60,315 nucleotides of DNA, from positions 1-60,315 of the forward strand of contig CAYQPG010000001.1 in NCBI GenBank assembly GCA_964419525.1, read 5' to 3'. Under the pieces are notes generated by a model. It did not search any database, had not been told where the DNA came from, and saw only the letters and a program-made list of their open reading frames with translations. The position numbers and the translations under genes are program-made. How positions within the stretch are numbered: position 1 is the first letter of the stretch; each line of letters begins with the position of its first letter. This DNA comes from an uncultured Candidatus Saccharibacteria bacterium. Its GTDB lineage: Bacteria; Patescibacteriota; Minisyncoccia; UBA6257; GWB1-50-10. This document shows positions 6,332-44,761 of the stretch, piece by piece.

Positions 6332-7345
6332 CTATTGTATGGCGAACGGATTTTTCGCTCCGTAAACCTCGAAATGCAAATGACAACCGGTAGGTCCGTC
6401 GGTATTGCCGGTATTGCCCATAAGCCCTATCTCTTGGCCTTTTTTCACGTAGTCGCCGACTTTGACGAGCGCTTTGTCCAGATGGGCATACCTGGTTTTC
6501 GTGCCGTTCGGATGCTCTATGAACACGAATACGCCGTAGCCGTTGTTCCATCCGGAAGAACCGTCGCCCAAGCTGGGATCGGCGATTATCAATCCCTCGG
6601 CGGCGGCGTAGACCGGCGTACCGCACTGATTGGCTATATCCACGGCGTTGTAATTGTGGAGCTGACCCCAATTCCAGCCGACCGCCGGAAGACTGAAATA
6701 ATTTTTAAGATCTGGTAGGTTGGACGAAGTTTGGTTCAACGACGCGATATTGGAAATCTTGGCGTAGGGCACGATGAGGCTTCCTCCGGAACCGGAAAGT
6801 ATGTTCTGGTAATCCGGGTTGTATTTAGTGAGGAGATCTTCGGTGGTATTGAATTTGTCGGCTATTTCAGACAACGTATCTCCTTTTGAAACTTGATATA
6901 AAACGCCCGGGACGGGCAGTATGATAAGCTCCTGGTTGGGTCTGATCGACTTGATGTTCCTGTTAGCCAGCTGTATCGTCGTAACTGGTATGTCGAATTG
7001 CTTGGCTATGCTGGAAAGCGTGTCGCCGGCCTTAACTTTGTATTGTATGAGTCCGTTGCCCAACGGGATTATGCCGACCAGCGGGTTCTGATCGCCCAAG
7101 ATGCCCGACTGCGACACGAATATATTGTCCAATCCGACGTTGGAAGAAGAGATCGCTTCGCCGTTCCCGGCCACGACATAGGACGACGGCTCGTCGGGAA
7201 CGGGGCCGCCAAAGTTGAAATTTCTTTTGAAATCAGCCGCTTTAAACGTGGCGCCCAGAGCTGAAAAAACGATGCTCGAAGACACCAATAAAAACGCCGC
7301 CCAGAAAATAACGGACCTCAACATAGACCCCCCATAGGTCTTCAT
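6332..7345 (-). CDS. Secreted LysM-domain M23 peptidoglycan endopeptidase
   Basis: N-terminal signal/TM segment, two LysM repeats (YKVKAGDTLSSIAKQF, YQVSKGDTLSEIADKF) and M23 motifs (HPNGTKTRYAHL, GNTGNTDGPTGCHLHFEVY). Confidence 0.9.
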   Translation of the reverse strand: MKTYGGSMLRSVIFWAAFLLVSSSIVFSALGATFKAADFKRNFNFGGPVPDEPSSYVVAGNGEAISSSNVGLDNIFVSQSGILGDQNPLVGIIPLGNGLIQYKVKAGDTLSSIAKQFDIPVTTIQLANRNIKSIRPNQELIILPVPGVLYQVSKGDTLSEIADKFNTTEDLLTKYNPDYQNILSGSGGSLIVPYAKISNIASLNQTSSNLPDLKNYFSLPAVGWNWGQLHNYNAVDIANQCGTPVYAAAEGLIIADPSLGDGSSGWNNGYGVFVFIEHPNGTKTRYAHLDKALVKVGDYVKKGQEIGLMGNTGNTDGPTGCHLHFEVYGAKNPFAIQ

Positions 7346-7419: not shown

Positions 7420-8253
7420 ATGCCTAGGCGCCTGGGACAGCACTTCCTTAAAAACAAAAAAATATTGGAGAAGATCGCCGATTCACTCAATCCCAAAAGC
7501 GGCGACATCGTCGTCGAAATAGGTCCCGGACACGGGGAGCTGACCGAAGAGTTACTGAAATATCCGGTGACCGTACTAGCAGTTGAGAGAGATGAAGCGC
7601 TTGTCAATTTTCTCAATAAAAATTTCAAAACCCAAATCTCAAACTTCAAATCAAATCCAAAATCAAGACTGCCAAAACTTAACATCCTGAACGGCGATGC
7701 GTTAAAAATTCTTCCGTCATTGATTGGTCGTTTGGAATTTGACATTGGTCATTCCGGCTACAAAGTAGTCGGGAATATTCCCTACTACATCACCGGATAT
7801 CTCCTCCGGATTTTAAGCGGTCTGGAACACAAGCCGGAGGCCATAACGCTCCTCATCCAGAAAGAAGTCGCTGAGCGGATCGTCGCAAAACCGCCGAAGA
7901 TGAATTTGCTCGCCGCCGTAACGCAATCATGGTCGGAACCGAAAATAATACTCTCCGTCGGCAGGAAAGAATTTTCTCCGCCGCCCAAAGTCGATTCCGC
8001 TGTCATAACCATGGTGCCGGGAGGCTCCCCGAGCACCCTCGGCGCTCGGGAGGCTCAGTATTACGAATTCCTCCGCGTTCTCTTTCGGCAACCGCGGAAA
8101 ACGATAGTGAATAACCTAATGACGAATGACAAGTTACAAATGACAAAAAATGATCTTATCAAAGAGTTGACCAAAATGAATATTAATCCGCTTGATAGGC
8201 CGCAAGATCTGTCCGCCGACGATATCGCCGGAATATTCAAGATCATCCTGTGA
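7420..8253 (+). CDS. rsmA: 16S rRNA (adenine1518/1519-N6)-dimethyltransferase
   Basis: LGQHFL, the SAM motif EIGPGHGELT, and GNIPYYITG. Contains two short A/T-rich insert-like tracts (see findings). Confidence 0.9.
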   Translation: MPRRLGQHFLKNKKILEKIADSLNPKSGDIVVEIGPGHGELTEELLKYPVTVLAVERDEALVNFLNKNFKTQISNFKSNPKSRLPKLNILNGDALKILPSLIGRLEFDIGHSGYKVVGNIPYYITGYLLRILSGLEHKPEAITLLIQKEVAERIVAKPPKMNLLAAVTQSWSEPKIILSVGRKEFSPPPKVDSAVITMVPGGSPSTLGAREAQYYEFLRVLFRQPRKTIVNNLMTNDKLQMTKNDLIKELTKMNINPLDRPQDLSADDIAGIFKIIL

Positions 8254-8257
8254 TATA

Positions 8258-8614
8258 ATGGAAGTGATGAAAAATAAGGTGCTGTTGATCTTTCTTCTCG
8301 CGATTATTTTCGCTTCTCTTGGTGCCAACGTGACGCAAGCGATAGGCTTTTCGTCTTTCGGCGGCAAAATAACCGCCATCCTGCCTTATACCGGATGCGG
8401 CATGCCGGTCATATCCGTGCAATCCGGCCTCGTGCCGCTCATACTCGGGATCCTTCCATCGACTTCGATATATGCTAACAAGATAACTCTTCCCGGTGCG
8501 TACGCTCTGGGCCTCTACATACCCATACCCACTCCTTGCTTCACGCCTCCGTCGCCCATACCGACCGGATACGCCTTCCCGGTGATGAGCATAGGCACCT
8601 CTTTATTGCCTTAG
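8258..8614 (+). CDS. Small secreted hydrophobic/Pro-rich protein
   Basis: ATG 8258 (or 8267) follows the rsmA stop directly. Signal peptide MKNKVLLIFLLAIIFASLGANVTQA. The ORF-track start at 8192 would overlap rsmA. Confidence 0.5.
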   Translation: MEVMKNKVLLIFLLAIIFASLGANVTQAIGFSSFGGKITAILPYTGCGMPVISVQSGLVPLILGILPSTSIYANKITLPGAYALGLYIPIPTPCFTPPSPIPTGYAFPVMSIGTSLLP

Positions 8615-8701
8615 CGACGCCAAAAACCTTATAAACAACGGAGATGTATTGTATAATTAGAATCAGGAATTATTCTACCTGCGCTCGGTTCGATTTTTAA
8701 G

Positions 8702-9490
8702 ATGAAATCAAGTTCCATGAAATTAATAGGAATCTTAAAAAGGAAGAGGAAGGCGGTCAGCATCCTCATTCTTACCGCATCGCTCGCCTTGAGCGCTTAT
8801 TTGATATTCGCTCCGGCCAAGAAGAACGTGCATCAAAACGCCCTGGCTCAAATAGCCACTTCCAGTGAGAGCCAAGGAACGGATCCCAGTCTGACCTTCC
8901 AGCCAAGCCAGCAAGAAAACTTGACGCTGAACTTCGCCAACCAGACGTTCAATAACGCCGTTAACAACGACTTGTACCAGAAAAACGGGAGCGCGAGCAT
9001 AATACCGCCCAACCAATCGGACATACAGAACACGATATCCCAGATCATAGACCAGGAATACGCCACGCCGGTCCTTAAAAGCTCCGACGTGACGGTCGGC
9101 ACCGACGATTCCAAGAACGCGCAGAGGATCTACGTATTATACGTGAACCAGGTGATGTCCAGTCTCCCGACATTAACATCCGACACCTCCTCAGCCCAAA
9201 CACAAGAATCGCTTGAGTCGCTGTTCCTGAGCTCGGCCAAGAATCTCGATACGGCCGCTCAGCTTCTGGAGGCCATAAAAGTTCCGCCCTCTTGGGTCCA
9301 AATACATAAAAATTTGCTGTCTCTCCTGATACACCAAAGGAACATCTTCGAATCCCTTTCCAAGGCCGGGAGTGATCCGTTGCGTTTCATGATAGCTCTC
9401 TATCAGACCTCACCGACCGAATTTGACAGCGCTTTTCAAGAGATAAAGAACGAGATAAATCAAAAAATAACCAATGAAGGCCTTATATAA
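8702..9490 (+). CDS. Membrane-anchored hypothetical protein; first gene of the T4SS-like operon
   Basis: N-terminal anchor AVSILILTASLALSAYLIFAP followed by a Gln/Ser/Asn-rich ectodomain. TATAAT at 8652-8657 lies upstream. Its 3' end overlaps the next ORF. Confidence 0.55.
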   Translation: MKSSSMKLIGILKRKRKAVSILILTASLALSAYLIFAPAKKNVHQNALAQIATSSESQGTDPSLTFQPSQQENLTLNFANQTFNNAVNNDLYQKNGSASIIPPNQSDIQNTISQIIDQEYATPVLKSSDVTVGTDDSKNAQRIYVLYVNQVMSSLPTLTSDTSSAQTQESLESLFLSSAKNLDTAAQLLEAIKVPPSWVQIHKNLLSLLIHQRNIFESLSKAGSDPLRFMIALYQTSPTEFDSAFQEIKNEINQKITNEGLI

Positions 9491-11420
9491 AATAGCGACA
9501 ATTTCAGCGGCGGTTTCGATGCTTGCTTCGTCAATCCTCTTTCCCGGCGGAGCCTTGATTAATACCGCTTCCGCCGACAACGGCCCTTGCGACGGCTGGG
9601 TGCTCCAATGGTCGGATGGTTCAGCTGTAAACTCGTCGGATTTCATGCTCCCTCCGGTAAAACTGTCGGTCTCACCCGGCGATCCTGCTTACAGCACATC
9701 GACGCCGCCTGGAACAGCTACAACCAATCCGGATTACAATGCTTCGACCATGGGCTTCGTGCTCGCCTCGTCTTCGCCGCAATACGGCAAAAATAATTCG
9801 CTCCAGTGGACTTGCTCTAACTACAGCAGCCCGAGCTCCGGCCTCACTTCAAGCCAGCAGCCGCAGGGAACGGAGGCTTGCATAGCCGCCGCTCAAATCG
9901 CCGCCAAGTACGGCGCTTACACCGCCCTGAACGCCAATTTCAGCACGCTCACGGAAAACATCAAGAACGCGGTTGTGCAGAAGGTCATCGACAATCTCAA
10001 AAACCAGTTCAGCAACGTCCACATAAACATTAGTAATCTCCTGGGAACGTCGACTTTGGGTTCCGACCTCGCGGGTCTCATAGGCAACAACCCGACATTT
10101 ACCGACGTGCAAAACCTGTTCACGAGCTCCGGACTTCAGGATGCCTTCACAAAAACATTCGGCGATCCGATGAAGAAGCAGGTACAGGGCCAAGTGGACG
10201 CCATAACGAAGGAGGCCTCGCAGCAGCTCGCCGAAATAGGAATTAATGTCCTCGGGAGTGCCGCTACCCAGATCAAGGACATCACGAACCTCGGAGGCAG
10301 CTTTGCCGGCATCCAATCCGTCCCCGTGAACGACGCCGGCACCCAAGCCCAACTGAAGGAAGTTCAAAAGATCCAGGAAAAGGCGATCCAGGAACAAAAG
10401 ACGCAGGAAGTGATTGCTCAGACGAGATCGCAATGCGACCTCCTCCTGAAGAGCACGGTGGAAACCATAAAAAGATCGCTCCTTTACGAGTTCACTTCGG
10501 AAACAGTGAACTGGATACAAGGCGGCGGGATCCAATTTTCTAACGGCAAAATCATCGTTAAGGCGCCTCAATACTTCTCACAGCCTTTGAAATCCTTGGC
10601 GGACGCCGGACTCACGGCCGTCGATCGGCTGATTTCCCAGGTCGCCCCGCAGCTTTGCCAGCCGTTCCGACTGGCCGTAACTTTCGACATCCCGACCGTC
10701 AGCAAGGAATCCAACCCCTACTACCAACAAGTAAGCTGCACCTTGAACCAAGTTGTCGGCAACATACAGAATTTTTACGAGAACTTCAGGAGCGGCAGCT
10801 GGCTGGGATACCAGGAGATGTGGATGCCGCAGAACAACTACTACGGCGCTTCACTCCAGGTTCAAGGCATGGCGCAAGCGGCTTCCGTCGGCGCCCAGTC
10901 CGCGCTCCAGAACGAGATGAACCAGGGTAACGGCTATAAGAATAAATATCAGTGCAATCAGTGGGAGGAATATACCCAGGTCCCGACCAATCTGGCGGCT
11001 CTTTACTCCATATCCGGCGTACCATTGGGCAAGGACATCCAGATTGTGAATGGGGTTTATTATCAGGGCCAGCCGGTAGACTCCGCGAACGGCATACCTT
11101 CCGACGCCCAAACGACGGTCACTAACTCCGCCTACATATCAGGCAGCCGCCTTTTTACGGACACAAACAACACGATGTTTTACGAATGTAGCGGCGAACC
11201 GGAGATCGTTCAGCCTTCCAACATAGCCGCCGGCCTGGCCCAGCAGTCGACGCAGGTCGACGTTCAGTCGCTCATCAACGCCCAGGACCTGACCGACATC
11301 GGCGACATCATCCAGAGGGCCATTATTAATAAGCTGACCAAAGTGGGCATCGGCGGGCTGCAGGGAGTTCTCCAGAAACTACCGGGACTTCAAAACAGGT
11401 TGCAGATATTAAATCCTTGA
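9474..11420 (+). CDS. Large secreted hypothetical protein (648 aa)
   Basis: Signal peptide (ATISAAVSMLASSILFPGGALINTASA), Gln/Asn/Ser-rich with scattered Cys. Translationally coupled on both sides by overlaps at 9474/9490 and 11417/11420. Confidence 0.6.
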   Translation: MKALYKIATISAAVSMLASSILFPGGALINTASADNGPCDGWVLQWSDGSAVNSSDFMLPPVKLSVSPGDPAYSTSTPPGTATTNPDYNASTMGFVLASSSPQYGKNNSLQWTCSNYSSPSSGLTSSQQPQGTEACIAAAQIAAKYGAYTALNANFSTLTENIKNAVVQKVIDNLKNQFSNVHINISNLLGTSTLGSDLAGLIGNNPTFTDVQNLFTSSGLQDAFTKTFGDPMKKQVQGQVDAITKEASQQLAEIGINVLGSAATQIKDITNLGGSFAGIQSVPVNDAGTQAQLKEVQKIQEKAIQEQKTQEVIAQTRSQCDLLLKSTVETIKRSLLYEFTSETVNWIQGGGIQFSNGKIIVKAPQYFSQPLKSLADAGLTAVDRLISQVAPQLCQPFRLAVTFDIPTVSKESNPYYQQVSCTLNQVVGNIQNFYENFRSGSWLGYQEMWMPQNNYYGASLQVQGMAQAASVGAQSALQNEMNQGNGYKNKYQCNQWEEYTQVPTNLAALYSISGVPLGKDIQIVNGVYYQGQPVDSANGIPSDAQTTVTNSAYISGSRLFTDTNNTMFYECSGEPEIVQPSNIAAGLAQQSTQVDVQSLINAQDLTDIGDIIQRAIINKLTKVGIGGLQGVLQKLPGLQNRLQILNP

Positions 11421-13660
11421 CAATGATGTCTTTCTTCAAAAATAAAAAACGCAAAAAATTACTGCCGATTGTTATTTTGGCCGTGATATTTTTGCAGTTT
11501 ACGGCGCCTGGCATAGCCACAGCTCAAACGACGAACAGTCAGCCAAGCTGGATTTCTCAGTTATTCGTCGAACTTGGGACGGCCGCAGCTGTTTTCGGAT
11601 CTTCCCCAACCACGGCTACTAAGATCGCTCTCAATGCCGTAAGTTCGTCAGCCGGCAGCGCAGCTCTCGATATAGTTTCCTTGGTCAACCAACTCTTCGG
11701 TTTCGTGGGGGGCATTGTCATCTATCTCGGATCCGTTCTCATCAGCACGGCCTTTTCTCTCAATAACTATCTCATGGGGCTGCCGATAGTCCAAAGCGGA
11801 TGGCAAATAACGAGGGATATCACTAACCTCGGTTTCGTGCTGGCCGTGATAATCATCGCTTTCGCGACCATTCTGAGGATAAATCAGTACGGCGTCCAAA
11901 AGATGCTGCCCCGCCTCATCGCGGCGGCGATCCTGGTCAATTTCAGCTTGACGATAGGCGGAGCCATACTGGATTTCACGAACGTTATAACCAAGTTCTT
12001 CATAGACAGATCCATAGGGAACGGATCATTTGCTCAATCCGTCGATATCGGGACCAATCTGACGGCCGCTTTCAATCCCCAGAAGCTTCTCGAGGTCAAC
12101 GCTCAGAACGCGCAGAGCATACCGGCGGGCATGACGACCGCCTTAGTTTCCGCGGCCAGCACTTTCTTCGTGGCCGCCTTCACTCTTCTCATGGGACTCG
12201 TCCTTCTTGCGATAGCCCTCATGCTTCTCACGAGATTTGTCTGGTTAGCGTTTCTTTTGGCCGTGGCGCCCATGCCGTGGCTTTTCGGCGTCATACCCAT
12301 AGCCGGATTGTCCAGTATGTCTAAAAAGTGGTGGGACAAGTTCATGCACTGGGCGTTCGTCGCCCCCATTTTATCGTTCTTCCTTTATCTGACTCTCGCC
12401 ACGGCGGCGAAGGTCGGGAGCATAGCCCAGAGCATCATCAGCCAGAACGCGAGCGCCACCAACAATCCGACGTTGATATCCGGCTTCATACTTCAGACCG
12501 TCAACATGCTGATATTGGTCGGCTTCCTGGTCGGGGGATTGATAGCCGCGAACGGCATGGGCATCATCGGCGCCGGCGCCGTCTATGGATTAGCGAAAAG
12601 TGCCGGGAACAAAGCCAAGGGATTCGCCAAAAACAAAACGCTGGGCGTGGGCAAGAGACTGGCGACGGCCGGATCTAAGGGCGATAAAGAGGGTAAATCC
12701 GTATTTGAGAGATTATCAGAAGGCCGTTTAGGGAAAGCTCCTTTGTTGGGCGGCGCCTTAAGAGGCCTGGCCGGGGCATCACTTAGCGCCAAAGAAAAAT
12801 CGCAGGGCGACATAGACAATTCTTACAAGAACAACAAGAAATTCAGCAAGGATACGCTGGCCAACAAGTACAACGGCCAAAAGTTAATAAACGAGAGGGA
12901 CCTCGGTGGACTTTTGGCCCTGGCCGAGAAAGGCGGATGGAGCAAATTGGATGATGCAACGAAGAGCAGGGCCGTCTCCGCCATAAAGAGGACCGGCTCG
13001 GCCGCCAAATTTGCCGCTTACGATCCGTCAATAGCCATAGCCGCCGGCATGCCGGCTGAAAAAGCGGTCAAGTTGGTCGAGGACGTATCTAAATTGGATA
13101 AAGACACGGTTAAGCAAGCGGCCCAGCACATGAGGGTCCAGCAGGACAGGGACATAGGCAACAAGGGAACGATGGAACAGAGGCAGGCCCACGCCGAAGG
13201 ATTGAAATTGGCCTTCGTCACCAAGAACAGAAGCGAATCGCAGGTCAATTCTGTTTTCGGCGACATAGAACAGGAAATGAACACTTTAGACAAAAACATT
13301 AAGGACTACAAAGACGCCAAAGACCTCGGCAAGACAGATGAAATGGAAAGATTGAAGACCGAAAGGAAGAATATAGAACAGCGCATAAGCTTCGCCGAAG
13401 ACGAACTTGTAAACGGCGGCGACATAGAACAGGAAGACGAAGTAAGAGCCTTGGATCAGGAGATAGTCAAGGCCCAGGGAGAGGAAAGAATTAAAAAGAT
13501 AGCGGAGAGAACAAATAAGATTAGCAGCATAAAAGACAAGAGAAGAGACGTGCTGCAAAGAAGAAAATCACTCATGAAGCAGGCGGCTTGGCAGGGAGTG
13601 CCGGAATACAAAAATAAACACGTGAATACCGATAGTGCCGCGAATGAAGAAACAATATAA
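11417..13660 (+). CDS. Polytopic membrane protein, VirB6/TrbL-like, with a long Lys/Glu-rich C-terminal tail
   Basis: Signal sequence, then at least 7 hydrophobic helices between about aa 90 and 520. A ~230-aa charged, coiled-coil-like tail follows. The position just upstream of PrgI-like and VirB4 genes supports the call, which rests on topology and context only. Confidence 0.5.
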   Translation: MTMMSFFKNKKRKKLLPIVILAVIFLQFTAPGIATAQTTNSQPSWISQLFVELGTAAAVFGSSPTTATKIALNAVSSSAGSAALDIVSLVNQLFGFVGGIVIYLGSVLISTAFSLNNYLMGLPIVQSGWQITRDITNLGFVLAVIIIAFATILRINQYGVQKMLPRLIAAAILVNFSLTIGGAILDFTNVITKFFIDRSIGNGSFAQSVDIGTNLTAAFNPQKLLEVNAQNAQSIPAGMTTALVSAASTFFVAAFTLLMGLVLLAIALMLLTRFVWLAFLLAVAPMPWLFGVIPIAGLSSMSKKWWDKFMHWAFVAPILSFFLYLTLATAAKVGSIAQSIISQNASATNNPTLISGFILQTVNMLILVGFLVGGLIAANGMGIIGAGAVYGLAKSAGNKAKGFAKNKTLGVGKRLATAGSKGDKEGKSVFERLSEGRLGKAPLLGGALRGLAGASLSAKEKSQGDIDNSYKNNKKFSKDTLANKYNGQKLINERDLGGLLALAEKGGWSKLDDATKSRAVSAIKRTGSAAKFAAYDPSIAIAAGMPAEKAVKLVEDVSKLDKDTVKQAAQHMRVQQDRDIGNKGTMEQRQAHAEGLKLAFVTKNRSESQVNSVFGDIEQEMNTLDKNIKDYKDAKDLGKTDEMERLKTERKNIEQRISFAEDELVNGGDIEQEDEVRALDQEIVKAQGEERIKKIAERTNKISSIKDKRRDVLQRRKSLMKQAAWQGVPEYKNKHVNTDSAANEETI

Positions 13661-13666
13661 GCCTAA

Positions 13667-14569
13667 ATGACATTCGAAGAAGTACCACAACAAATAAAAA
13701 ACAGCTTGTTTTCCGAACGAGTGGATGAAATACTCGAAGAAATAAGGAACGAGGCGGTCATAACCAGCCCCACTCTTATTGCCGGCGCCTTTTATGACCT
13801 CATAACCAAAGAAACTCCCGCCCACTACTTCGTGCAAGACCTCGCTGAAAGGGGTGCGGGAGAGAAAATGGCCAAATCGATAGCCAAGGCCATAAAGGAA
13901 AGGATATTGGAATCGGAAAGATATTCTCTTTTCAGATGGGGAGTGGACATAAGCGAGATAAAAGTCGAGGATGCTCCAAATTTGGAGACCTTGGGATTAA
14001 GGGAAGATCTGCGGCCCGAGGAGACGAAGAAAACTCTCCATCCGGAATCCATCGAGAAAAAGGAGCAGGAGATCGAAGAAATACCAATAATAAGGAGTAC
14101 CTTCCAGCCGCCGGCGGAAAAGAAAGAAACCGGGTCCATGCCTTTCGTTCTTCAGGAGAGACCCAAGGAAGAGAGCGCCCTCTCCGGGCAGGCGACCGGC
14201 ATAATACCGTCTCTTTCCTTCGGATTCTTCAAATCAAAAAAGGTCAAACCGATCATCTCTCCCCAGCCCATAAAAGCCCGCATCGAAACTCCCGAAGCTG
14301 AAACGCCTAAAGGCAAAAAGGTAGTCCATTACATGGAGAGCAGATCCACCGCATCGCCCTTCGAAGCTGGCGGAGAGTTTTTGAGAACCGAAGAGATCGC
14401 GACACCCGCGCCTAAAGAAGAGGTGCCGAAAAAGCCCGCGGATAATCCATTCCTGAACGCCATACTCAAAAAACCGCCGGAGAAGAGCAGTGGTAAAAAG
14501 ACGGAAGCAAAAATCGTTTCATCCGGACCGAAGATTGAGGGCAACACGATAGACCTAAGAAATAATTAG
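13667..14569 (+). CDS. Hypothetical soluble protein with a disordered Pro/Glu/Lys-rich C-half
   Basis: No TM segment or signal peptide. Sits inside the operon. Confidence 0.5.
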   Translation: MTFEEVPQQIKNSLFSERVDEILEEIRNEAVITSPTLIAGAFYDLITKETPAHYFVQDLAERGAGEKMAKSIAKAIKERILESERYSLFRWGVDISEIKVEDAPNLETLGLREDLRPEETKKTLHPESIEKKEQEIEEIPIIRSTFQPPAEKKETGSMPFVLQERPKEESALSGQATGIIPSLSFGFFKSKKVKPIISPQPIKARIETPEAETPKGKKVVHYMESRSTASPFEAGGEFLRTEEIATPAPKEEVPKKPADNPFLNAILKKPPEKSSGKKTEAKIVSSGPKIEGNTIDLRNN

Positions 14570-14573
14570 CCAA

Positions 14574-15065
14574 ATGGAATTCCAAGTTCCGCAATTCATA
14601 GAACAAAAGGCAAAAATAGTGGGGCCCTTAACGCTGGTCCAGTTCTTTTACGTCGCCGGGGCGGGAGCCGTGAGTTTCATAGCTTACAACATTCTGAGCC
14701 CGTTCCTTTGGGTGATAATAACTCTCATCGTCCTCGGGATCGCCGGCACTTTAGCCTTCGTCAAAATCAACGGGCAGGAAATGATAAAGGTCTTGGGTTC
14801 GATCACGAAATTCTATTTTGCCCCGCGGATGTATACCTGGCAGAGGCAAACGGCCAAGACGACCTTGGAACTCTCCGATGAGGACATTGAAAGCCTCAGA
14901 AAGAATATGAGCATCGGCAGCAAGCTTAAGTCGCTGGCCCTCAAGGTCTCGGTGGGCCGAATACTCGGCAAAGACCAGCCCAAAGAGGGCGATAGGGAGG
15001 GACATTACGAAGTGGTGACTTATCTGACCGGGGAAAGGAAGGTCGCCAAAAGAGTAGATTATTGA
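14574..15065 (+). CDS. PrgI-family (VirB3-like) T4SS membrane protein
   Basis: N-terminus FQVPQFIEQKAKIVGPLTLVQFFYVAGAG followed by two TM helices. This matches the PrgI pattern (VP..i....ki.g.LT.rQ) and lies just upstream of VirB4. Confidence 0.6.
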   Translation: MEFQVPQFIEQKAKIVGPLTLVQFFYVAGAGAVSFIAYNILSPFLWVIITLIVLGIAGTLAFVKINGQEMIKVLGSITKFYFAPRMYTWQRQTAKTTLELSDEDIESLRKNMSIGSKLKSLALKVSVGRILGKDQPKEGDREGHYEVVTYLTGERKVAKRVDY

Positions 15066-15089
15066 AGCTTAAACGCTTAAAATACAATC

Positions 15090-15737
15090 ATGGCGCAAAA
15101 TCAAACACCGACGCAGACATTGGTCGAGGTAAAAAAGATAGACAACGGGGTCGTCTATCTTAAAAACGGCGGCTTGGTCCAGATAATAATGGTCGGCGGC
15201 ACCAATTTCGACCTCAAGTCCGAGGACGAACAAAACGCCATAATCGCCACTTTCCAGAAATTTCTGAACTCGCTCGACTTCAGAACCCAGTTCTTCATAC
15301 ATTCCCGCAAGGTCAATATCCAAAAATATTTGGACAACATGCGGGAAAGGAAGAAAAACGAGGAAAATGAACTTTTGAAGATACAAATAGACGAGTACAT
15401 AAACTTCATAAAATCGTTTGTCGAACAGAACGCCATCATAAGCAAAAATTTCTTCGTGGTCGTGCCTTACGATTCGACGCCCGACGCCTCATCGGCCGCG
15501 ACGGGACTCATGGGTTTTTTCAAAAAAACGCCGACTGCGGCACAAAAAGCCGAGACCGGCGCCTTGGACCGGGAAAACCTCGAACAATTAAGGAACCGGG
15601 CCGAGGGGGTGATAAGTGGTCTCGAACAAATGGGATTGAAGGCCGTCCCAATGGAAGATGATGAGCTCACCGAATTGTTTTATAATCTATACAATCCTCA
15701 ACTCGTCGAGAAAAAGGGATTGAACTTGGCACAATAG
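15090..15737 (+). CDS. VirB4/TraC-type ATPase, N-terminal domain fragment (ends at an in-frame TAG)
   Basis: LVEVKKIDNGVVYLKNGGLVQIIMVGGTNFDLKSEDEQNAIIATFQKFLNSLDFRTQFFIHS resembles the VirB4 N-terminal domain. It is in the same reading frame as 15744-17489. Confidence 0.55.
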   Translation: MAQNQTPTQTLVEVKKIDNGVVYLKNGGLVQIIMVGGTNFDLKSEDEQNAIIATFQKFLNSLDFRTQFFIHSRKVNIQKYLDNMRERKKNEENELLKIQIDEYINFIKSFVEQNAIISKNFFVVVPYDSTPDASSAATGLMGFFKKTPTAAQKAETGALDRENLEQLRNRAEGVISGLEQMGLKAVPMEDDELTELFYNLYNPQLVEKKGLNLAQ

Positions 15738-15743
15738 TTTCAC

Positions 15744-17489
15744 ATGAAGATCCAAATCCCACAAGCTTACAAACCGGGCGAAGAAGATTTGTTCAACATC
15801 ATAGCTCCCTCCGGCGTGGAAGTTAATTCCAATTACCTCAAAATAGGCGATTATTACGCCAAAACGTTCTTCATATTCACTTATCCGCGCTACATAACCA
15901 CCGGTTGGTTCTCTCCCATTATAAACATGCCGACCATGATGGACATCTCCATATTCGTCCATCCCATGGACACATCTTTGGCCCTAAGAAACCTAAGAAA
16001 GAAGGTTGCTCAAATAGAGGCCGAGATAACGGAAAAGGAAGAAAAGGGCGTTGTCCGCGACCCAGTCCTCGAAACGGCCTACCAGGACATAGAAAGCTTG
16101 CGCGACTCGCTCCAGCAGGCCAGAGAGAAGCTTTTCGAGGTCGGCGTTTACATAACCATCTACGCCTCCAGCTTGGAAGAACTGGCCAAGATCGAGAGCG
16201 ATCTCACGAACACCCTGGAAAGCAGAATGGTTTATTTGAAGCCGGCGCTTTTCAGGCAAGACGAAGGGCTGAGTTCCGTCCTGCCGATAGCCGAGGACAA
16301 GCTGGCGGTAAGGACGCCTTTGAACAGCGGCCCGGCGTCGTCCATATTTCCGTTCACTTCCGCCGACCTGACGTCGGAGAACGGCATCCTGTACGGCATA
16401 AACATGCAGAACAACACCCTCATAATATTCGACAGGTTTTCTTTGGAAAACGCCAACATGGTGGTCTTCGCCAAATCCGGCTCCGGCAAATCGTACGCCA
16501 CCAAACTCCAAATACTGCGATCACTCATGGTGGGAACGGACGTCATAGTTATAGACCCGGAGAACGAATACCAGAATCTGGCCGACTCGATAGGCGGCAG
16601 CTACTTCAAAATATCGCTGACGTCCGAAAACCACATCAATCCCTTCGACATACCCGTGATACCCGAGGGGGAGGAGCCGGCCGACGTCTTTAAATCGCAC
16701 ATATTGAACTTGACGGGACTCGTGAAACTGATGCTCGGCGAGGTCAAACCGGAAGAGGAAGCTCTTCTCGACAGAGCCATAACTGAAACGTACACGTCGA
16801 GGGACATAACGGCCGAAAATTTCGGCACACTTAAAGAATTGAATCCGCCGCTCCTGGAGGACCTTCAAACCATACTCCAAAACACCGAAGGGGGGGGCGG
16901 CATAGCCCAAAGACTGGACAGGTTCACTCACGGTTCGTACTCGGGCTTCACGAACGCCCCCACGAACGTCGACATAAAGAACAGGCTGATAGTCTTTTCC
17001 ATAAGGGACTTGGAGGAAGAATTGAGACCCATCGCGATGTACATAGTTCTTAACTTCGTCTGGAACCTCATAAGATCGGAACTTAAATCGAGATTACTCG
17101 TGATAGACGAAGCTTGGTGGATGATGAAATACAAGGACAGCGCCTCATTCTTGTTCGGACTAGTGAAGCGAGCCAGGAAGTATTATTTGGGCGTCACGAC
17201 CATAACCCAGGATGTGGACGATTTCCTGGGATCCGAGTACGGCCGGCCTATTGTCACCAACTCGGCAATGCAATTGCTTTTAAAGCAGTCGCCGTCAAGC
17301 ATAGAACCACTGACCAAAGCTTTCAACCTGACGGACGGGGAGTCGGCGCTGCTCCTCGAGGCCGGCGTCGGCGAAGGACTGTTGTTTGCCGGACTGAAAC
17401 ACGCCGCCATAAAGGTCATAGCGTCATATACTGAGGATCAGATAGTCACGACCAACCCGGAGCAAATATTGGAAGCCAAGGGATTATAA
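15744..17489 (+). CDS. virB4: VirB4/TrbE/CagE-type T4SS ATPase, C-terminal ATPase domain
   Basis: Walker A SGSGKS (GSGKS = 16479-16493), Walker B LLVIDEAWWMM (DE = 17106-17111), and TTITQDVDDF. The two ORFs total 215 + 581 aa, about the length of a full VirB4. Confidence 0.85.
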   Translation: MKIQIPQAYKPGEEDLFNIIAPSGVEVNSNYLKIGDYYAKTFFIFTYPRYITTGWFSPIINMPTMMDISIFVHPMDTSLALRNLRKKVAQIEAEITEKEEKGVVRDPVLETAYQDIESLRDSLQQAREKLFEVGVYITIYASSLEELAKIESDLTNTLESRMVYLKPALFRQDEGLSSVLPIAEDKLAVRTPLNSGPASSIFPFTSADLTSENGILYGINMQNNTLIIFDRFSLENANMVVFAKSGSGKSYATKLQILRSLMVGTDVIVIDPENEYQNLADSIGGSYFKISLTSENHINPFDIPVIPEGEEPADVFKSHILNLTGLVKLMLGEVKPEEEALLDRAITETYTSRDITAENFGTLKELNPPLLEDLQTILQNTEGGGGIAQRLDRFTHGSYSGFTNAPTNVDIKNRLIVFSIRDLEEELRPIAMYIVLNFVWNLIRSELKSRLLVIDEAWWMMKYKDSASFLFGLVKRARKYYLGVTTITQDVDDFLGSEYGRPIVTNSAMQLLLKQSPSSIEPLTKAFNLTDGESALLLEAGVGEGLLFAGLKHAAIKVIASYTEDQIVTTNPEQILEAKGL

Positions 17490-17493
17490 AAAC

Positions 17494-17943
17494 ATGGAAG
17501 AGGACAACGAATTGGAACAATTAAACGAGGGGATCGACAAGGCCGGCGAAGATATAGCGTCCGATGCTCCCCGGATAAGCTGGGGCGAGATACTCTTAAT
17601 AACTCCCTTGTTGATGTTCGTTGATTTCGTAGAGCTCATGGGGACCGTCATGGAGGCTATCCCGGTGGCTGGCCAAGTGGTTTTATTGCCGGTTTCGTTG
17701 ATCTTGTCGGGCGTCAGTCTTTTGGTGACTTTTTTCGTACAATTTTATCTTTTCATAAAAAAGGTCAAAAACTTCGCGTTCTTGATAGGAAGTATCATCG
17801 ACTCGGTGCCTGTAATAAGCGCCTTACCCATAAGGACCGTAAGCTGGCTCATAACGGTCTTTATGACCAACAACAAAAAGGTTTCAAAGCTCATGAACAA
17901 CTCGGCTCTTGGTAAGGCGGCGAGCATAGCCACTAAAATATGA
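17494..17943 (+). CDS. Small polytopic membrane protein (3-4 TM), hypothetical
   Basis: Acidic N-terminus followed by hydrophobic helices. Overlaps the next ORF by 4 nt. Confidence 0.55.
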   Translation: MEEDNELEQLNEGIDKAGEDIASDAPRISWGEILLITPLLMFVDFVELMGTVMEAIPVAGQVVLLPVSLILSGVSLLVTFFVQFYLFIKKVKNFAFLIGSIIDSVPVISALPIRTVSWLITVFMTNNKKVSKLMNNSALGKAASIATKI

Positions 17944-18623
17944 AAAAAACGATACCCATATTACTGGCACTCATATTCTTGTCCGCGGCGCTATTAGTAA
18001 AAGCTCAAACGGCGAGCGGAACAAATACTTATCAAGCCGTCATAACTTGGGACGCCAACGACTATTATCCCTCGGACTTTAAAGGTAAACCTATGCCGAC
18101 CAACGGAACCAACGTTTCTCTTTCCGTGATATTAACCCAAAATCAGAGACTGGTGGACGTATCAAGCATGCCGATACTGTGGTATGTCGACGGCAACTTT
18201 CTGGGCGGTGGCGTAGGTTCTTACCAGACGAGCTTCCGCGTCACTAAGACCGCCGGCGACTACCACACTGTAATGGTGGAAATAAACACGCCCGACGGAC
18301 AGACGATATCGACTTCGGAAAGCATACCGGTATCCAATTACCTGGCGATCATAGACGCTCCTTATCCGGCTGACCAAGTTCAGAAGAACTCAACGGTCAA
18401 TCTGGAAATAATACCTTATTTTTTCAACGTTTCTTCCTTGAACAATCTCCTTTTCTCGTGGAACGTAAACAGCCTCCAGAAAACGAACCAATCGCTGGAT
18501 AATACATTGTCGCTTCAAACCGGGTCGGTCTCGCCTCAGACGGTCAATGTGAGCGCATACATAGAGAATTCCTCCAATCAATACGAGTTCGCCAACGGCA
18601 AAATCAACCTGTATGTTCAATAA
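17940..18623 (+). CDS. Secreted hypothetical protein, beta-rich
   Basis: Signal peptide MKKTIPILLALIFLSAALLVKAQ followed by Asn/Ser/Thr/Val-rich sequence. Confidence 0.55.
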   Translation: MKKTIPILLALIFLSAALLVKAQTASGTNTYQAVITWDANDYYPSDFKGKPMPTNGTNVSLSVILTQNQRLVDVSSMPILWYVDGNFLGGGVGSYQTSFRVTKTAGDYHTVMVEINTPDGQTISTSESIPVSNYLAIIDAPYPADQVQKNSTVNLEIIPYFFNVSSLNNLLFSWNVNSLQKTNQSLDNTLSLQTGSVSPQTVNVSAYIENSSNQYEFANGKINLYVQ

Positions 18624-18626
18624 AAC

Positions 18627-19517
18627 ATGATAAAAAAACTTCTGAAAAAAATGGGCAATGCTTCAAGACAACACAATGGCAAGCTGGCGGTGTTGGTCGT
18701 TCTGATGGCGGCTTTGTATCTGCCCCAAATAACTCACGCCAGTTTGGATTTAAAACTTTACAATTCACCGCCATGCCTTCTGACGGACCAGTACGGCAAC
18801 TGCCCCGACCAAACGACTTTGAGCGGGTACATTCAAACGCTTTACAGGTTTGGATTGGGGATTGGCGGAATATTGGCCGTCGGGATGATAATTTTCGGAG
18901 CCATAAACATATCAATCTCGGGCAGCGTCGACAAAGAGAAAGAAGGAAAAAGCTACATAACATCCGCTCTCCTGGGTTTATTGCTGCTTTTCGGAGCTTA
19001 CGTGCTCCTAAGGGAGATAAATCCGAATCTGGTGCAATTATCTCCGCCCTCAGCGCCCCAAATTTCGTTTCCCACATCGACGATGACCAATGCCATGTGG
19101 ACCGACAATAACCAGAAACTGGCCGAATTGGAGAATGCCGGCGTCGAAGTGTCGAGCAGCGGCAACTGCTTCGACATAAGCAATCCGACGTGTACCAGTC
19201 TGGCCGGCATGCCCGACCCGGCGATCCAGTTCATAATAAATTTGGAAAAAAACTCTGGGTGTCCGGCCAACTCTCCGCAGGGGATAGTGGTGACCGGCGG
19301 AACGGAGGTTGGCCACCAAACCCACGGTTACGGACTGCCGGTCTTCGACTTAAGGGATAGTTCCTGTTTGGTGAGCTACATACAAAACAACCTCAGCAAC
19401 CTTAAAAGCTCAGTGGAAAGGATTTGTTCAATAGCCGCCAACAGTCAGATAACCTTCGGATGCGGCAATTACGTCGAACAAGAAGACCACATACATATAG
19501 CGCTCAAGACGCAGTAA
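18627..19517 (+). CDS. VirB2/TrbC-like pilin module fused to a Cys-rich C-terminal domain (possible LAS/M15-type metallopeptidase)
   Basis: Signal sequence plus two TM helices flanking a short charged loop (GLGIGGILAVGMIIFGAINISISGSVDKEKEGKSYITSALLGLLLLFGAYVLLREINPNLV). The C-domain carries H233-x7-D241 (19323-19349) and H288-x-H290 (19488-19496). Confidence 0.5.
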   Translation: MIKKLLKKMGNASRQHNGKLAVLVVLMAALYLPQITHASLDLKLYNSPPCLLTDQYGNCPDQTTLSGYIQTLYRFGLGIGGILAVGMIIFGAINISISGSVDKEKEGKSYITSALLGLLLLFGAYVLLREINPNLVQLSPPSAPQISFPTSTMTNAMWTDNNQKLAELENAGVEVSSSGNCFDISNPTCTSLAGMPDPAIQFIINLEKNSGCPANSPQGIVVTGGTEVGHQTHGYGLPVFDLRDSSCLVSYIQNNLSNLKSSVERICSIAANSQITFGCGNYVEQEDHIHIALKTQ

Positions 19518-19519
19518 CA

Positions 19520-20701
19520 ATGGGACAAAAATATAAAATATTAATATATTTGGGCGTCGTTATTCTGGTAGGACTCATATTGTACGTTATTTGGACCGCC
19601 TTCGTCCCTAAACCGACCGTACCGGTCACGCCGACGCCCGCGCCGTCCTCGGGATCATTGCCAGTAACCAACGGCACTTCTTCCGTAACCACCGGAACAG
19701 CGAGTCAAGCCGCGTCATCGACCATAACCGTGCCTATCCTATCTAAAATATCGAGCCATGACGTCTTTACTTACTGGGTGGATCCCCAAACCGGCGACGT
19801 AAGATACATGGATAATACCGGCGAAGTCTGGCTCGTGAACCAAGGAGGTAAGGAAACGCTCGACTCCGGCCAGACACTGACCGCCTTGAATTCCGCCGAC
19901 GTATACCAGAACAAACAGGAGGTATTGGTTTCCTTCGGCGACCCGGCGGCGCCGCAGTGGGCCATCTACGATGTTCTGGACCAAACGTGGCATTCCCTGC
20001 CGCAGAACATAGTGAACGTGACGTGGGGCGCCGATCCCAACCAATTGATAGGCCTGGTCAAAAACGTGAACTCGTATTCGCTGTCCTACGTCGATCTGAC
20101 CAAGACGCCGGCGACAGAGAAGACAATATTGAACAATTTCTACATGAATGGCGTTAACTTCAAATTCTTGGCGCCGTCGACGCTCATCATAACCGAAAAA
20201 CCGTCGTCTTATTACAGCGCCAGCGCCTGGGAATTAAATTTGAAAAACTTGGCCATGAACATGGTATTCCAGCCGACAGCCGGACTTTACGCCAGAACAT
20301 CGTCGGATGGCTCGCTTATATTTTCTTACAGCGGCAACAACATCACCATCCTCAATTCAAAGACGCTCGCGCCGTACAACCTTCCGTTCCAATCGTTGCC
20401 CGGCAAGTGCGATTCATCGGCCAACGCATCTTCTTCCAGTATCTACTGTTTCTCGCCCGAGAACGTAACGCCTTCCGTCGTCATGCCCGACGATTACCTG
20501 GAAAAAGCATTTTACTCGATAGATATACTGTATAACTACAGCTTCAACACCCAAAACACCAAGACGGTCATAATAAGCGGAACGCCCGGCATACCCATGA
20601 TAGACGCCGAAAACGTAAGCTCTTACGGCGGGAGTGTTTATTTCGTGAACAGATATGACAACTCGCTTTACAAACTCACCCTTCCTTCGGTAAATAATTA
20701 A
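19520..20701 (+). CDS. Membrane-anchored hypothetical protein with a beta-rich ectodomain
   Basis: ATG 19520 lies 3 nt after the preceding stop; the ORF-track start at 19424 overlaps the previous gene. TM helix ILIYLGVVILVGLILYVIWTAF, a Pro/Thr/Ser linker, and a ~330-aa domain. Confidence 0.55.
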   Translation: MGQKYKILIYLGVVILVGLILYVIWTAFVPKPTVPVTPTPAPSSGSLPVTNGTSSVTTGTASQAASSTITVPILSKISSHDVFTYWVDPQTGDVRYMDNTGEVWLVNQGGKETLDSGQTLTALNSADVYQNKQEVLVSFGDPAAPQWAIYDVLDQTWHSLPQNIVNVTWGADPNQLIGLVKNVNSYSLSYVDLTKTPATEKTILNNFYMNGVNFKFLAPSTLIITEKPSSYYSASAWELNLKNLAMNMVFQPTAGLYARTSSDGSLIFSYSGNNITILNSKTLAPYNLPFQSLPGKCDSSANASSSSIYCFSPENVTPSVVMPDDYLEKAFYSIDILYNYSFNTQNTKTVIISGTPGIPMIDAENVSSYGGSVYFVNRYDNSLYKLTLPSVNN

Positions 20702-21126
20702 GACTCTATGAGAGATATCACTATGTGTCTGTCCTTGCCGGCTCCGACGCTTTCCGTCTTGAGGTCCGGATTGGAGGCTATTTCCATGTGCACCAATCTT
20801 CTTTCATAGGAGTTCATCGGCGGCAAAGAAACTTCCGATTTGGAGATCTTTGCTTTCTTAGCGCCGGCTTTGGCCAATTCCACTATCAATCTCTCCCTTT
20901 CACGGCGATAATAATTCACGTCCACCACAAAGGGCGGCTTTTCAGCCTGCTTCAGTGCTAAATTCATCAGATGCTCAACGGGTTGCAGAATGCTTGGTAT
21001 TTGAGATCGAAAAAACTCGTCGTCGACGACGATTGATATTTTTCTTACGTTTTCATCGACGCTCACCTCCACCCTTTCGAAACCCATTAAATTGAAGAAT
21101 TTTTTTGCGTATTCTGGAATATCCAT
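20698..21126 (-). CDS. jag: Jag/KhpB-like KH-R3H RNA-binding protein
   Basis: R3H motif region SYERRLVHMEIASNPDLKTESVGAGKDRHIVI. Lies downstream of yidC, as is usual. Confidence 0.8.
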   Translation of the reverse strand: MDIPEYAKKFFNLMGFERVEVSVDENVRKISIVVDDEFFRSQIPSILQPVEHLMNLALKQAEKPPFVVDVNYYRRERERLIVELAKAGAKKAKISKSEVSLPPMNSYERRLVHMEIASNPDLKTESVGAGKDRHIVISLIES

Positions 21127-21138
21127 CTCTTTTGGTTT

Positions 21139-21819
21139 CTAATTATCGCTCTTCTCAAGCTTTTTTTCAATAGCCGGCAATTTCTTGTTGATGTAAATTT
21201 GCTGCGCGAACGAGAAAGCCGTGAAGACCAACCAATAGAGACCGATGGCCGACGGTAAATTGCCCAATATCAGCACGGTTATCAACGGGCCGATGAATGT
21301 CATTGTTCTCTGCATCTGGCCGGCGGCGCCGGATATCTTTTGATTACCCATCATCGATTTCGTTTGGAAATATTGAAGAATGGCGGCGATGATGACCACT
21401 ATCCAATTTTTGGCGGCTAAATCAAATAATCCAAGGAATGTCGTGGAGGCGAAATTAAAGTTTTTTATCTGACTGGTAAAAAGATTGAAAAGAGCTATAA
21501 AAATCGGCAATTGTATTATAAGGAGCAGTATGCTGGAAAAGGGATTTATTTTATGTTCCTTATAAAGTTCCATCAGGGCCTCGGCTTGCTTGCCTTTGTC
21601 ATTCTTGTGTTTTTCTTGAATATCCTTTATGTGCGGCTGCAATCGCTGCATTATCGTCTGATCCTTGGCTCCTTTGTAGAAGAACGGCAACAATACGATT
21701 CTCACGAGCACCGTGAGTATTATGACCGCGACGCCAAGGTCGTGAAAAGCCATAGTGTTGTAGATAAAAACCAAAACGCTCAAAAGCGGCAATGAAATGT
21801 ACGTATTTATGAAGCTCAT
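21139..21819 (-). CDS. yidC: Membrane protein insertase YidC (short form)
   Basis: Multi-TM protein with VLVRIVLLPF, the charged loop MQRLQPHIKDIQEKHKNDKGKQ, and the rnpA-yidC-jag context. Confidence 0.85.
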   Translation of the reverse strand: MSFINTYISLPLLSVLVFIYNTMAFHDLGVAVIILTVLVRIVLLPFFYKGAKDQTIMQRLQPHIKDIQEKHKNDKGKQAEALMELYKEHKINPFSSILLLIIQLPIFIALFNLFTSQIKNFNFASTTFLGLFDLAAKNWIVVIIAAILQYFQTKSMMGNQKISGAAGQMQRTMTFIGPLITVLILGNLPSAIGLYWLVFTAFSFAQQIYINKKLPAIEKKLEKSDN

Positions 21820-23719: not shown

Positions 23720-23903
23720 AAAAGATCGGTCCGATTGTGGATATCTGAGGATAAAAAACACAATTAAGAGCAAACATCAAAAAACAATTCACACCTAAGA
23801 AATTATTATCCTCAAGTTATCAGAATACGGACACGTCAAAAAACCAATCAAAAACGACTTCAATAACTTTATACACATACACACAACATCTACTACGACT
23901 ACT
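23720..23903. other. Candidate oriC (dnaA-dnaN spacer with DnaA-box-like 9-mers)
   Basis: Four 9-mers match TTATCCACA/TGTGGATAA at 8 of 9 positions: TGTGGATAT 23736-23744, TGAGGATAA 23746-23754, TTATCCTCA 23806-23814 and TTATACACA 23869-23877. One more, TAATCCACA, lies upstream of dnaA at 22256-22264. The spacer is A/T-rich. Confidence 0.5.
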
Positions 23904-44594: not shown

Positions 44595-44635
44595 ATGTTT
44601 TAGCTTACCCTCGGTATCATCATGGGTGTAAGCGC
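44595..44635 (+). pseudogene. Relic 3'-end fragment of a Wzy_C-like gene abutting the tRNA
   Basis: 32 of 41 nt identical to 44461-44501. Translates as MF*LTLGIIMGVSA against MFWLTLGVIMGVSA in the intact gene. Confidence 0.35.
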
Positions 44636-44703: not shown

Positions 44704-44761
44704 CAACGAAGTTGTGATTGAGGTGTATAATTGAATAAGAAACTAAAATCCTGGAGGAAGT

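Follow-up and report, generated by a model that had tools for sequence, protein, structure and literature searches.

What kind of machine is encoded by a compact set of genes beside dnaA that includes recognizable parts of a type IV secretion system (T4SS) and neither a coupling protein nor a relaxase? The set in question occupies positions 8258 to 20701 of a 60-kb stretch of DNA (60,315 nucleotides, referred to here as the window), and a first-pass annotation, made from the sequence itself, had taken it for a T4SS-derived envelope machine rather than an ordinary conjugation module. We analyzed the window with Pfam, NCBIfam, PDB-profile, Foldseek, AlphaFold2 (AF2), ARAGORN, and synteny scans. 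These analyses identify the block, almost certainly, as one of the known relaxase-less T4SSs from the candidate phyla radiation (CPR)/Patescibacteria clade, in the form found in Paceibacteria. A nonconjugative role at the interface between an epibiont and its host is the function that we lean toward, and the two statements taken together make a description of the block that we consider likely. The core inference of the first-pass annotation is supported by the synteny of relatives and by the lack of a type IV coupling protein (T4CP) and relaxase in these 60 kb; it is correct but already known, having been published almost point for point.

The identification can be set against a small number of published systems. 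Wang et al. (Cell, 2023; PMC10633639) described an unusual T4SS, with essential pilins and with no recognizable coupling protein or relaxase, that is essential for the epibiotic growth of Southlakia epibionticum. In a survey of 3,035 Patescibacteria genomes, Quiñonero-Coronel et al. (Microb Genom, 2025; PMC12102498) found a monophyletic VirB4 clade nested within the mating-pair formation class FATA (MPF_FATA); reported PrgI/VirB3, VirB6, and VirB2-like pilins; identified TrsD, mostly adjoining virB4, as the most abundant T4SS component detected; and placed the clusters of Paceibacteria and Microgenomatia near dnaA, dnaN, ksgA, rnpA, and rpmH. Most clusters in that survey lacked a relaxase, and T4CP homologues were common but rarely adjoined them. 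A 2025 review ranks the Patescibacteria systems as a new T4SS type (PMC12857230), and tubular structures seen at a parasite-host interface are maybe T4SS pili (bioRxiv 10.64898/2026.06.21.733656).

The block in the window, whose genes we number g01 to g12 in order (Table 1), has in common with the clade system (Southlakia SEML1_0006-0019; PMC12102498, PMC10633639) a VirB4 very likely of the clade, an adjoining TrsD, PrgI/VirB3, a probable VirB6, a PF18895 pilin, a cluster without relaxase or T4CP, and a chromosomal site near dnaA, dnaN, and ksgA. In contrast to Southlakia, a member of the Saccharimonadia with an array of six divergent pilins and with lysozyme and peptidase genes downstream of virB4, the window has a single pilin gene, whose product is extended by an additional C-terminal domain. 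It also has six further conserved genes of unknown family (g02, g03, g05, g09, g10, and g12) compared with the published Patescibacteria T4SS, a comparison made against the text of the paper rather than its synteny figure. The window is thus another instance of the published Paceibacteria arrangement and not a new kind of system. The CPR/Patescibacteria T4SS is near universal in a huge and mostly uncultured radiation and is essential to epibiotic growth in the one species tested. To the published picture the present analysis adds a coordinate list of 11 genes, the class-wide conservation of the unnamed ones, fold hints for g10 and g12, a family for g03, and a variable pilin fusion, and the conserved unnamed genes make promising subjects for structural and genetic studies.

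The central components of the machine could be named from protein families. The product of g06 matches the Pfam family PrgI (E = 2.3e-9, 38.1 bits against a cutoff of 27) and has two transmembrane (TM)-like segments, and that of g08 matches P-loop_TraG (5.7e-26), AAA_10 (2.9e-10), and DUF87, above the curated cutoff, with Walker A (AKSGSGKSY) and Walker B (LLVIDEAW) motifs readable in its translation. These significant matches to PrgI and VirB4 families fall in the interval 14574 to 17489, for which the first-pass annotation had proposed profile searches, and they bear out its assignment there of a PrgI/VirB3 protein and of a VirB4 ATPase with both Walker motifs. Residues 63 to 127 of g11 match T4SS_pilin (PF18895) at 5.8e-7 (29.9 bits, cutoff 26.6), with TM-like segments at residues 75 to 93 and 110 to 128. 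In the AF2 model of g11, which has a mean predicted local distance difference test (pLDDT) score of 84, helices 65 to 97 and 101 to 131 form a hairpin with pLDDT of up to 95, so that both the family match and the modeled hairpin agree with the two-TM VirB2-like pilin module annotated from 18627 onward.

The assignment of g04 to VirB6/TrbL, also proposed in the first-pass annotation, was not recovered with single-sequence searches, in which g04 alone had no Pfam or NCBIfam match, and was weakly supported by family profiles. A profile of its N-terminal domain built from 52 sequences matched the VirB6 protein TrwI of R388 (7o3v_F) at E = 0.0044, the sole other PDB match being at E = 1.5, and 8 of the 52 homologues matched Pfam TrbL (PF04610), all weakly (best, 2.5e-4), as 2 of the 52 did TrbL_4. 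Several TM-like segments lie in residues 15 to 376 of g04, and they are followed by a tail of ~300 residues, 35% of them K, E, D, or R, that resembles a coiled coil and whose region matches coiled-coil proteins. We assign g04 to VirB6 with moderate confidence on these profile matches.

The first-pass annotation had drawn the VirB4 gene as a single open reading frame (ORF) from 15090 to 17489. An in-frame TAG at 15735-15737 divides this span into two ORFs, of which g07 ends at the TAG and g08 has its own ATG start. The product of g07 corresponds to the N-terminal region of VirB4, with NCBIfam matches to TrsD (1.8e-9), the N-terminal part of VirB4_plasma (8.1e-13), and VirB4_CagE (1.6e-6) and a Pfam match to the N-terminal part of TraC_F_IV (5e-4). 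Of 77 relatives, 72 encode TrsD and VirB4 in two ORFs, whose relative frames are essentially random (19/22/31), and the other 5 (L025, L027, L035, L037, and L038) encode them in a single ORF of 729 to 807 codons, stop to stop. Because 72 loci are split and 5 are fused, the N-terminal piece of VirB4 has been split or re-fused within the class. The reading of the in-frame TAG as a mark of a pseudogene or as a read-through signal was rejected, since relatives are split in all three frames, and on this comparison of sequences its position between g07 and g08 is a coincidence. Two further features of this junction were observed in the relatives. The fused ORFs are located about 9.3 to 11.7 kb within their loci, and long spacers separate TrsD from VirB4 in L021, L022, L024, and L069 (~390 to 410 nt) and in L068 (692 nt), the junction in most other loci being an overlap or a short gap.

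Homologues of g08 number in the thousands. The best 120 are 77 to 92% identical to it and 578 to 593 residues long, bar one of 604 residues, a short form of VirB4 that typifies this clade, and the named proteins among these 120 are almost all from Patescibacteria, Jorgensenbacteria, and Brennerbacteria, with none naming another phylum. Judged by identity rather than by a tree, g08 very likely belongs to the monophyletic Patescibacteria VirB4 clade, and VirB4 identity to named proteins likewise marks the source of the window, a complete contig of a metagenome-assembled genome, as a Patescibacterium of the Paceibacteria group.

Related loci were collected by scanning one genome per species with VirB4, which yielded 80 loci from metagenome-assembled genomes of Paceibacteria-type Patescibacteria (Jorgensen-, Wolfe-, Brenner-, Colwell-, Lipton-, Taylor-, Nomura-, Vogel-, and Adlerbacteria). 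A locus was counted as eligible for a given gene if it was long enough to hold it, and the gene was scored as present, by iterated profile searches, when found at the syntenic position on the + strand. By this measure, g02 to g12 were present in 87 to 100% of eligible loci and were colinear in 76 of 80. Single-sequence phmmer searches recovered the shared order ksgA-g03-VirB6-PrgI-TrsD-VirB4-g10-pilin-g12-jag-yidC-dnaA-dnaN, with the flanking order ksgA ... jag-yidC-dnaA-dnaN seen in about 45 to 50 related loci. Because 76 of the 80 loci are colinear in the same slot, the unnamed genes are class-wide conserved core components, and the block is not an island; it is a vertically inherited chromosomal locus. 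This comparison of gene order had been suggested by the first-pass annotation, and its outcome qualifies the description given there of the unnamed products as orphan, lineage-specific parts. The same annotation had seen no obvious island, in agreement with the shared slot and with the borders of the block, at which we found no adjoining tRNA (ARAGORN), only short repeats of chance quality, and no compositional break. Shared synteny and the lack of such border features led us to reject the reading of the block as an integrative and conjugative element (ICE) or genomic island.

Table 1. Predicted genes of the T4SS block and its flanks in the window, with the number of eligible related loci in which each block gene is present
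Gene	Coordinates	Strand	Predicted product or position	Basis	Present/eligible loci
M23/LysM hydrolase	6332..7345	-	LysM + Peptidase_M23 cell-wall hydrolase; outside operon, two genes upstream	Pfam	
ksgA	7420-8253		Immediately upstream of block	Pfam	
g01	8258..8614	+	Small secreted/membrane protein, 118 aa	N-terminal hydrophobic segment	18/52 (mixed strands; not conserved)
g02	8702..9490	+	N-terminal-anchored bitopic protein, conserved, 262 aa	TM-like segment 18-36	48/53
g03	9474..11420	+	Secreted, Cys-containing, mostly helical protein, 648 aa	Family alignment	49/54
g04	11417..13660	+	Extended VirB6/TrbL-like polytopic membrane protein	Profile-level support	56/58
g05	13667..14569	+	Soluble protein, 300 aa; ~95-aa N-terminal domain + Pro/Lys/Glu-rich region		61/65
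g06	14574..15065	+	PrgI/VirB3-like membrane protein	Pfam PrgI PF12666	68/68
g07	15090..15737	+	TrsD-like, free-standing homologue of VirB4 N-terminal region, 215 aa	NCBIfam	71/71
g08	15744..17489	+	VirB4-family ATPase, 581 aa	Pfam	
g09	17494..17943	+	Small polytopic membrane protein, 149 aa	About three TM-like segments	62/71
g10	17940..18623	+	Anchored/signal-peptide surface protein, Ig-like β-sandwich domains	PDB profile	65/69
g11	18627..19517	+	VirB2-type pilin + Pro-rich linker + C-terminal α/β domain	Pfam T4SS_pilin; AF2	63/63
g12	19520..20701	+	N-terminal anchor + Ser/Thr-rich linker + β-propeller	TM-like segment 7-25; PDB profile	56/60
jag (R3H) + yidC	20698-21819	-	Downstream of block	Pfam	
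dnaA	At 22355		Downstream of yidC	Pfam	
dnaN	At 23904		Downstream of dnaA	Pfam	

The Pfam families of T4CPs and relaxases had no match in any scanned ORF of the window, and Relaxase, MobA_MobL, TrwC, Mob_Pre, and Rep_trans had none within the contig, in agreement with the earlier statement that neither VirD4 nor a relaxase lies in the operon or elsewhere in the 60 kb. Apart from VirB4, the window encodes just one secretion ATPase, a PilB-type T2SSE protein (34510-36222). Across the clade, only 103 of the 3,035 Patescibacteria genomes surveyed yielded a relaxase, VirD4-like/T4CP homologues are found in 2,918 and are usually far from virB4, and in Southlakia a distant T4CP is dispensable whereas the T4SS genes are essential (PMC12102498). 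The T4CP-less effector T4SSs of diderms, Ptl of Bordetella and VirB of Brucella, operate without a coupling protein and export proteins, not DNA, so a T4SS lacking VirD4 can be functional. Those systems differ from the block in belonging to MPF_T, in having a full VirB7-B10 outer-membrane core and VirB11, and in having a VirB4 of another clade and another envelope.

Since the homologous cluster of Southlakia and its pilins are essential for growth on the host, and a relaxase is absent, a role at the host interface would be the more natural assignment for the block. In such a machine, PrgI/VirB3 and the extended VirB6 would hold the 581-residue VirB4 and the TrsD-like piece at the membrane, and together these proteins would form an inner-membrane translocon, as homology to MPF_FATA and MPF_T systems suggests. 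VirB4 would pull the VirB2-type pilin g11 out of the membrane, and the pilin would polymerize into a fiber or conduit, something unusual among monoderms. Judged by topology and conservation, g02, g03, the Ig-like g10, the β-propeller protein g12, and the pilin's C-terminal domain might build or decorate the part that spans the wall and contacts the host. More speculatively, the cell wall might be opened by a hydrolase, either the M23/LysM enzyme encoded upstream or the His/Asp/His domain of the pilin. The whole would serve the epibiont-host interface, through effector export or the movement of host-derived macromolecules, and not plasmid conjugation.

Several points weigh against this proposal. 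Essentiality is known only in a species of Saccharimonadia with a different cluster, and the role in Paceibacteria is drawn by analogy with it. The frequency of VirD4-like T4CPs reported for the clade (PMC12102498) makes a distant one elsewhere in this genome likely, and a relaxase that has diverged beyond recognition could also be present. The roles assigned to g02, g03, g05, g09, g10, and g12 amount to guesses. For the C-terminal domain of g11, Foldseek, PDB profiles, and Pfam gave no significant match, which leaves an enzyme-like reading of it unsupported there.

The machine might instead import DNA or RNA to feed a cell without nucleotide synthesis, in the manner of archaeal Ced or of ComB in Helicobacter, an explanation that we consider unlikely, though with a real chance of being right. 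Ced and ComB, too, lack a relaxase and put a VirB4-family ATPase to a nonconjugative use. Archaeal homologues group with a small number of the Patescibacteria VirB4 proteins, and the locus of the ABY1 class adjoins comF, recG, and radA (PMC12102498). The parasitism of Minisyncoccota has in addition been tied to host RNA, with VirB4 monophyly noted (bioRxiv 10.64898/2026.06.21.733656), and comM lies 2 kb upstream of the block in the window. However, neither CedA/CedA1/A2 nor any ComB-specific component was detected in the window, and most Patescibacteria VirB4 proteins form a clade of their own, apart from archaeal VirB4 (PMC12102498). Deletion of comEC in Southlakia abolishes competence and leaves viability unaffected, so uptake through ComEC is not the reason that the T4SS is essential there (PMC12857230).

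Very unlikely, in our estimate, is a working conjugation or DNA export system whose T4CP and relaxase genes lie at another chromosomal site, an arrangement known from some ICEs and from dispersed systems, or whose relaxase is too divergent to be found. The nesting of VirB4 within conjugative MPF_FATA and the many T4CP homologues located away from virB4 speak for such a system, as does a search that covered only 60 kb of the genome. The monoderm conjugative T4SSs of that class (pCF10 Prg/Pcf, pGO1 Trs, and pIP501 Tra) have a PrgI-type VirB3, VirB4, and a VirB6-like protein in common with the block, as well as a TrsD-like protein in the pGO1 subclass and the lack of an outer-membrane core of VirB7, VirB9, and VirB10. 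In contrast to them, no relaxase, T4CP, PrgB-type adhesin, or recognizable VirB8-like protein was found on the contig; the block includes a VirB2-type pilin, which is absent from the Gram-positive systems; and it is a fixed chromosomal locus, while theirs are on plasmids or ICEs. The rarity of relaxases in the clade, the dispensable T4CP of Southlakia, and the class-wide constancy of a chromosomal block that is free of mobile-element marks all argue against conjugation. A decaying integrated conjugative element, in which the in-frame stop at 15735-15737 would make VirB4 a pseudogene and VirD4, the relaxase, and VirB8-B11 would have been lost, could draw on that TAG and on the lack of a T4CP and relaxase in the window but is effectively refuted by the two-gene form of TrsD, a recognized family, and VirB4 in 72 of 77 relatives, in random frames and with a separate ATG here, by a VirB4 that keeps 77 to 92% identity and a near-constant length over >100 clusters, by 11 intact genes that are colinear class-wide, and by the normal absence of VirB7, VirB9, and VirB10 from monoderm T4SSs (PMC12102498).

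Exactly one ORF with a T4SS_pilin domain occurs per locus at the slot of g11, ~+2.9 to +3.5 kb from the VirB4 start, and in relatives it is usually 200 to 570 codons long, which implies a variable C-terminal extension. A C-terminal domain of the window type was found in 17 of 71 pilin ORFs. In the AF2 model of g11 this domain (residues ~155 to 293) has an α/β fold with pLDDT of >90, and the alignment of its family shows H230 and D241 without exception and H288 almost always. LAS zinc hydrolases (hedgehog, DD-peptidase, and M15 types) have an H-x6-D ... H triad on an α/β fold, and the His-Asp spacing of the window copy is longer by one residue. Homologues of the domain also occur as free-standing secreted proteins of ~165 to 180 residues, which carry SHxNGYKxD and ExxHWD, and one of them is fused to PG_binding_1/3. 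The pilin extension of locus L015, which is differently built, is matched by Pfam HH_signal (3.8e-4) and by Sonic hedgehog (0.011) over the motif that forms the zinc site of hedgehog N-terminal domains, and it fits a LAS-type hydrolase. When the window and L015 C-terminal domains were compared with hhalign, the probability returned was 0.1%, and their likeness is at the level of motifs only. Foldseek searches with the whole g11 model against PDB and BFVD gave nothing at an E value of ≤0.001 and no LAS enzyme among the matches listed; the top PDB matches were histidine kinases (E about 0.07), probably an artifact of a helical hairpin lying beside an α/β domain. A hedgehog/LAS-like reading of the g11 domain is on these motifs a lead and not a result.

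In a fiber of VirB2-type pilins, the C termini should face outward, as in F- and T-pilus structures. One may picture the Paceibacteria pilin as a carrier that displays a variable C-terminal domain, which here would be a LAS-like zinc hydrolase that cuts the host or self wall at the contact site and which, with the six partners g02, g03, g05, g09, g10, and g12, would make an enzyme-armed filament. We regard this as quite unlikely; if true, an enzyme-armed T4SS filament would be of a kind not described for any T4SS.

The ORFs from 8258 to 20701 are all on the + strand and are tightly packed. Overlaps of 17 nt (9474/9490), 4 nt (11417/11420), and 4 nt (17940/17943) occur, the remaining junctions from 8702 onward are gaps of 2 to 24 nt, and 8614 and 8702 are set apart by an 87-nt gap that holds a TATAAT (8652-8657). 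The run of codirectional ORFs, its overlaps, and the TATAAT had all been noted in the first-pass annotation and were reproduced here, but the twelve ORFs that it placed from 8702 onward came to 11 colinear ones (g02 to g12, 8702-20701), or 10 with VirB4 merged, and reach 12 only when the ORF at 8258 is included. That ORF, g01, begins 4 nt after the ksgA stop and has an alternative start at 8267 and no Pfam or NCBIfam match. Because it is 87 nt from 8702, only 4 nt from ksgA, and poorly conserved, g01 is a doubtful member of the block and is probably outside the machine.

Searches with the unnamed products, taken to E values of ≤5 in Pfam and ≤1 in NCBIfam, returned only noise. The signal peptides or anchors with which these products had first been annotated do not apply to the product of the ORF at 13667 (g05), which has zero hydrophobic segments. 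g02 has no Pfam match, and a profile of 46 sequences gave no PDB match and no detectable VirB8 similarity; it is the only bitopic candidate of the right size for the NTF2-like component VirB8/PrgL/TcpC. The end of g03 shares 4 nt with the VirB6 gene, an overlap that points to coupled translation, and a VirB5-like reading of g03 is prompted solely by its place immediately before VirB6. Its alignment contains six invariant Cys residues and a highly conserved core at about residues 310 to 460, and its profile matched 2,767 clusters (50% identity) at E values of ≤1e-3 and 230 at ≤1e-30. Members of this family have in common a core at about residues 310 to 495, and many are 800 to 1,160 residues long with extra regions. 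By these profile matches g03 is a member of a large uncharacterized family, with nothing real among PDB (profile) or Pfam matches, and its AF2 model, from a 17-sequence alignment, was unusable (pLDDT of 42.7; predicted template modeling score of 0.22). Ten distant relatives of g03 searched against Pfam gave one Ig domain and one weak match to DUF4141 (7e-5, under the cutoff), and DUF4141 was dropped as a lead, being a single weak match on which the literature was uninformative.

The g05 product, 25% K plus E and with no Pfam or NCBIfam match, has short motifs that are conserved class-wide (among them VVHYSE..TP and a C-terminal EGN(T/I)(I/V)DLR). It is probably cytoplasmic, with an apparently disordered Pro/Lys/Glu-rich region, a pattern that would suit an adaptor or scaffold protein. 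g09 likewise has no Pfam or NCBIfam match. A g10 profile matched the PDB entry 7biz_A, a "cell surface protein," at 9.3e-6 and the Ig-like T4 Hoc at 0.0057, and a g12 profile matched WD40 (WDR5) at 1.2e-5 and TolB propellers at about 3e-4.

Upstream of the block lie comM, the M23/LysM hydrolase gene, and ksgA. In 14 of 80 loci the hydrolase (M23, 9.5e-27; LysM, 6.4e-21) is encoded near the block. Among Patescibacteria, M23/LysM domains are frequent in the proteins detected as VirB1-like, which in Paceibacteria show an association with virB4 (PMC12102498), and the enzyme is a possible VirB1-type helper of this block.

On the other side, Pfam calls on the flanking genes bear out the location beside jag-yidC-dnaA that had been annotated. 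Four DnaA-box-like 9-mers are grouped at 23736-23877, in the 184-bp spacer between dnaA and dnaN, and the cumulative GC skew has its minimum at 22 to 24 kb of the window; because of dnaA, these boxes, and the skew minimum, we place the block ~3 kb or less from the probable origin. The T4SS operon reads toward this origin, as do the + strand genes lying upstream, and would therefore meet the replication fork head-on; in about 45 related loci it converges on jag-yidC. Genes of the - strand at 25 to 36 kb, to the right of the origin, are likewise directed toward it. The remainder of the window encodes housekeeping functions (PBP1, PolA, RuvB, PilB, Fpg, Mur ligases, ClpB, ArgRS, and IleRS).

Type IV pili are the other envelope machine tied to Patescibacteria epibiosis. 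The PilB-type T2SSE ATPase of the window, which has an MshEN domain (4.3e-116), is encoded on the - strand 14 kb from the T4SS, so that, of a type IV pilus or type II secretion system, the motor ATPase at least is present in this genome. Four ORFs of 260 to 369 residues (3175-4284, 37720-38553, 57610-58461, and 58565-59347) have no Pfam family at an E value of ≤0.001. In the isoleucyl-tRNA synthetase (53878-57396; 1,172 residues), a His_Phos_1 domain (Pfam, 3.8e-26) occupies residues 502 to 667, inside the catalytic tRNA-synt_1 domain. The only ARAGORN matches in the 60 kb are a transfer-messenger RNA at 51329-51665 on the - strand, with the tag peptide DNNKVAAPAFAFA, and a tRNA-Arg(CCG) at 44632-44704.

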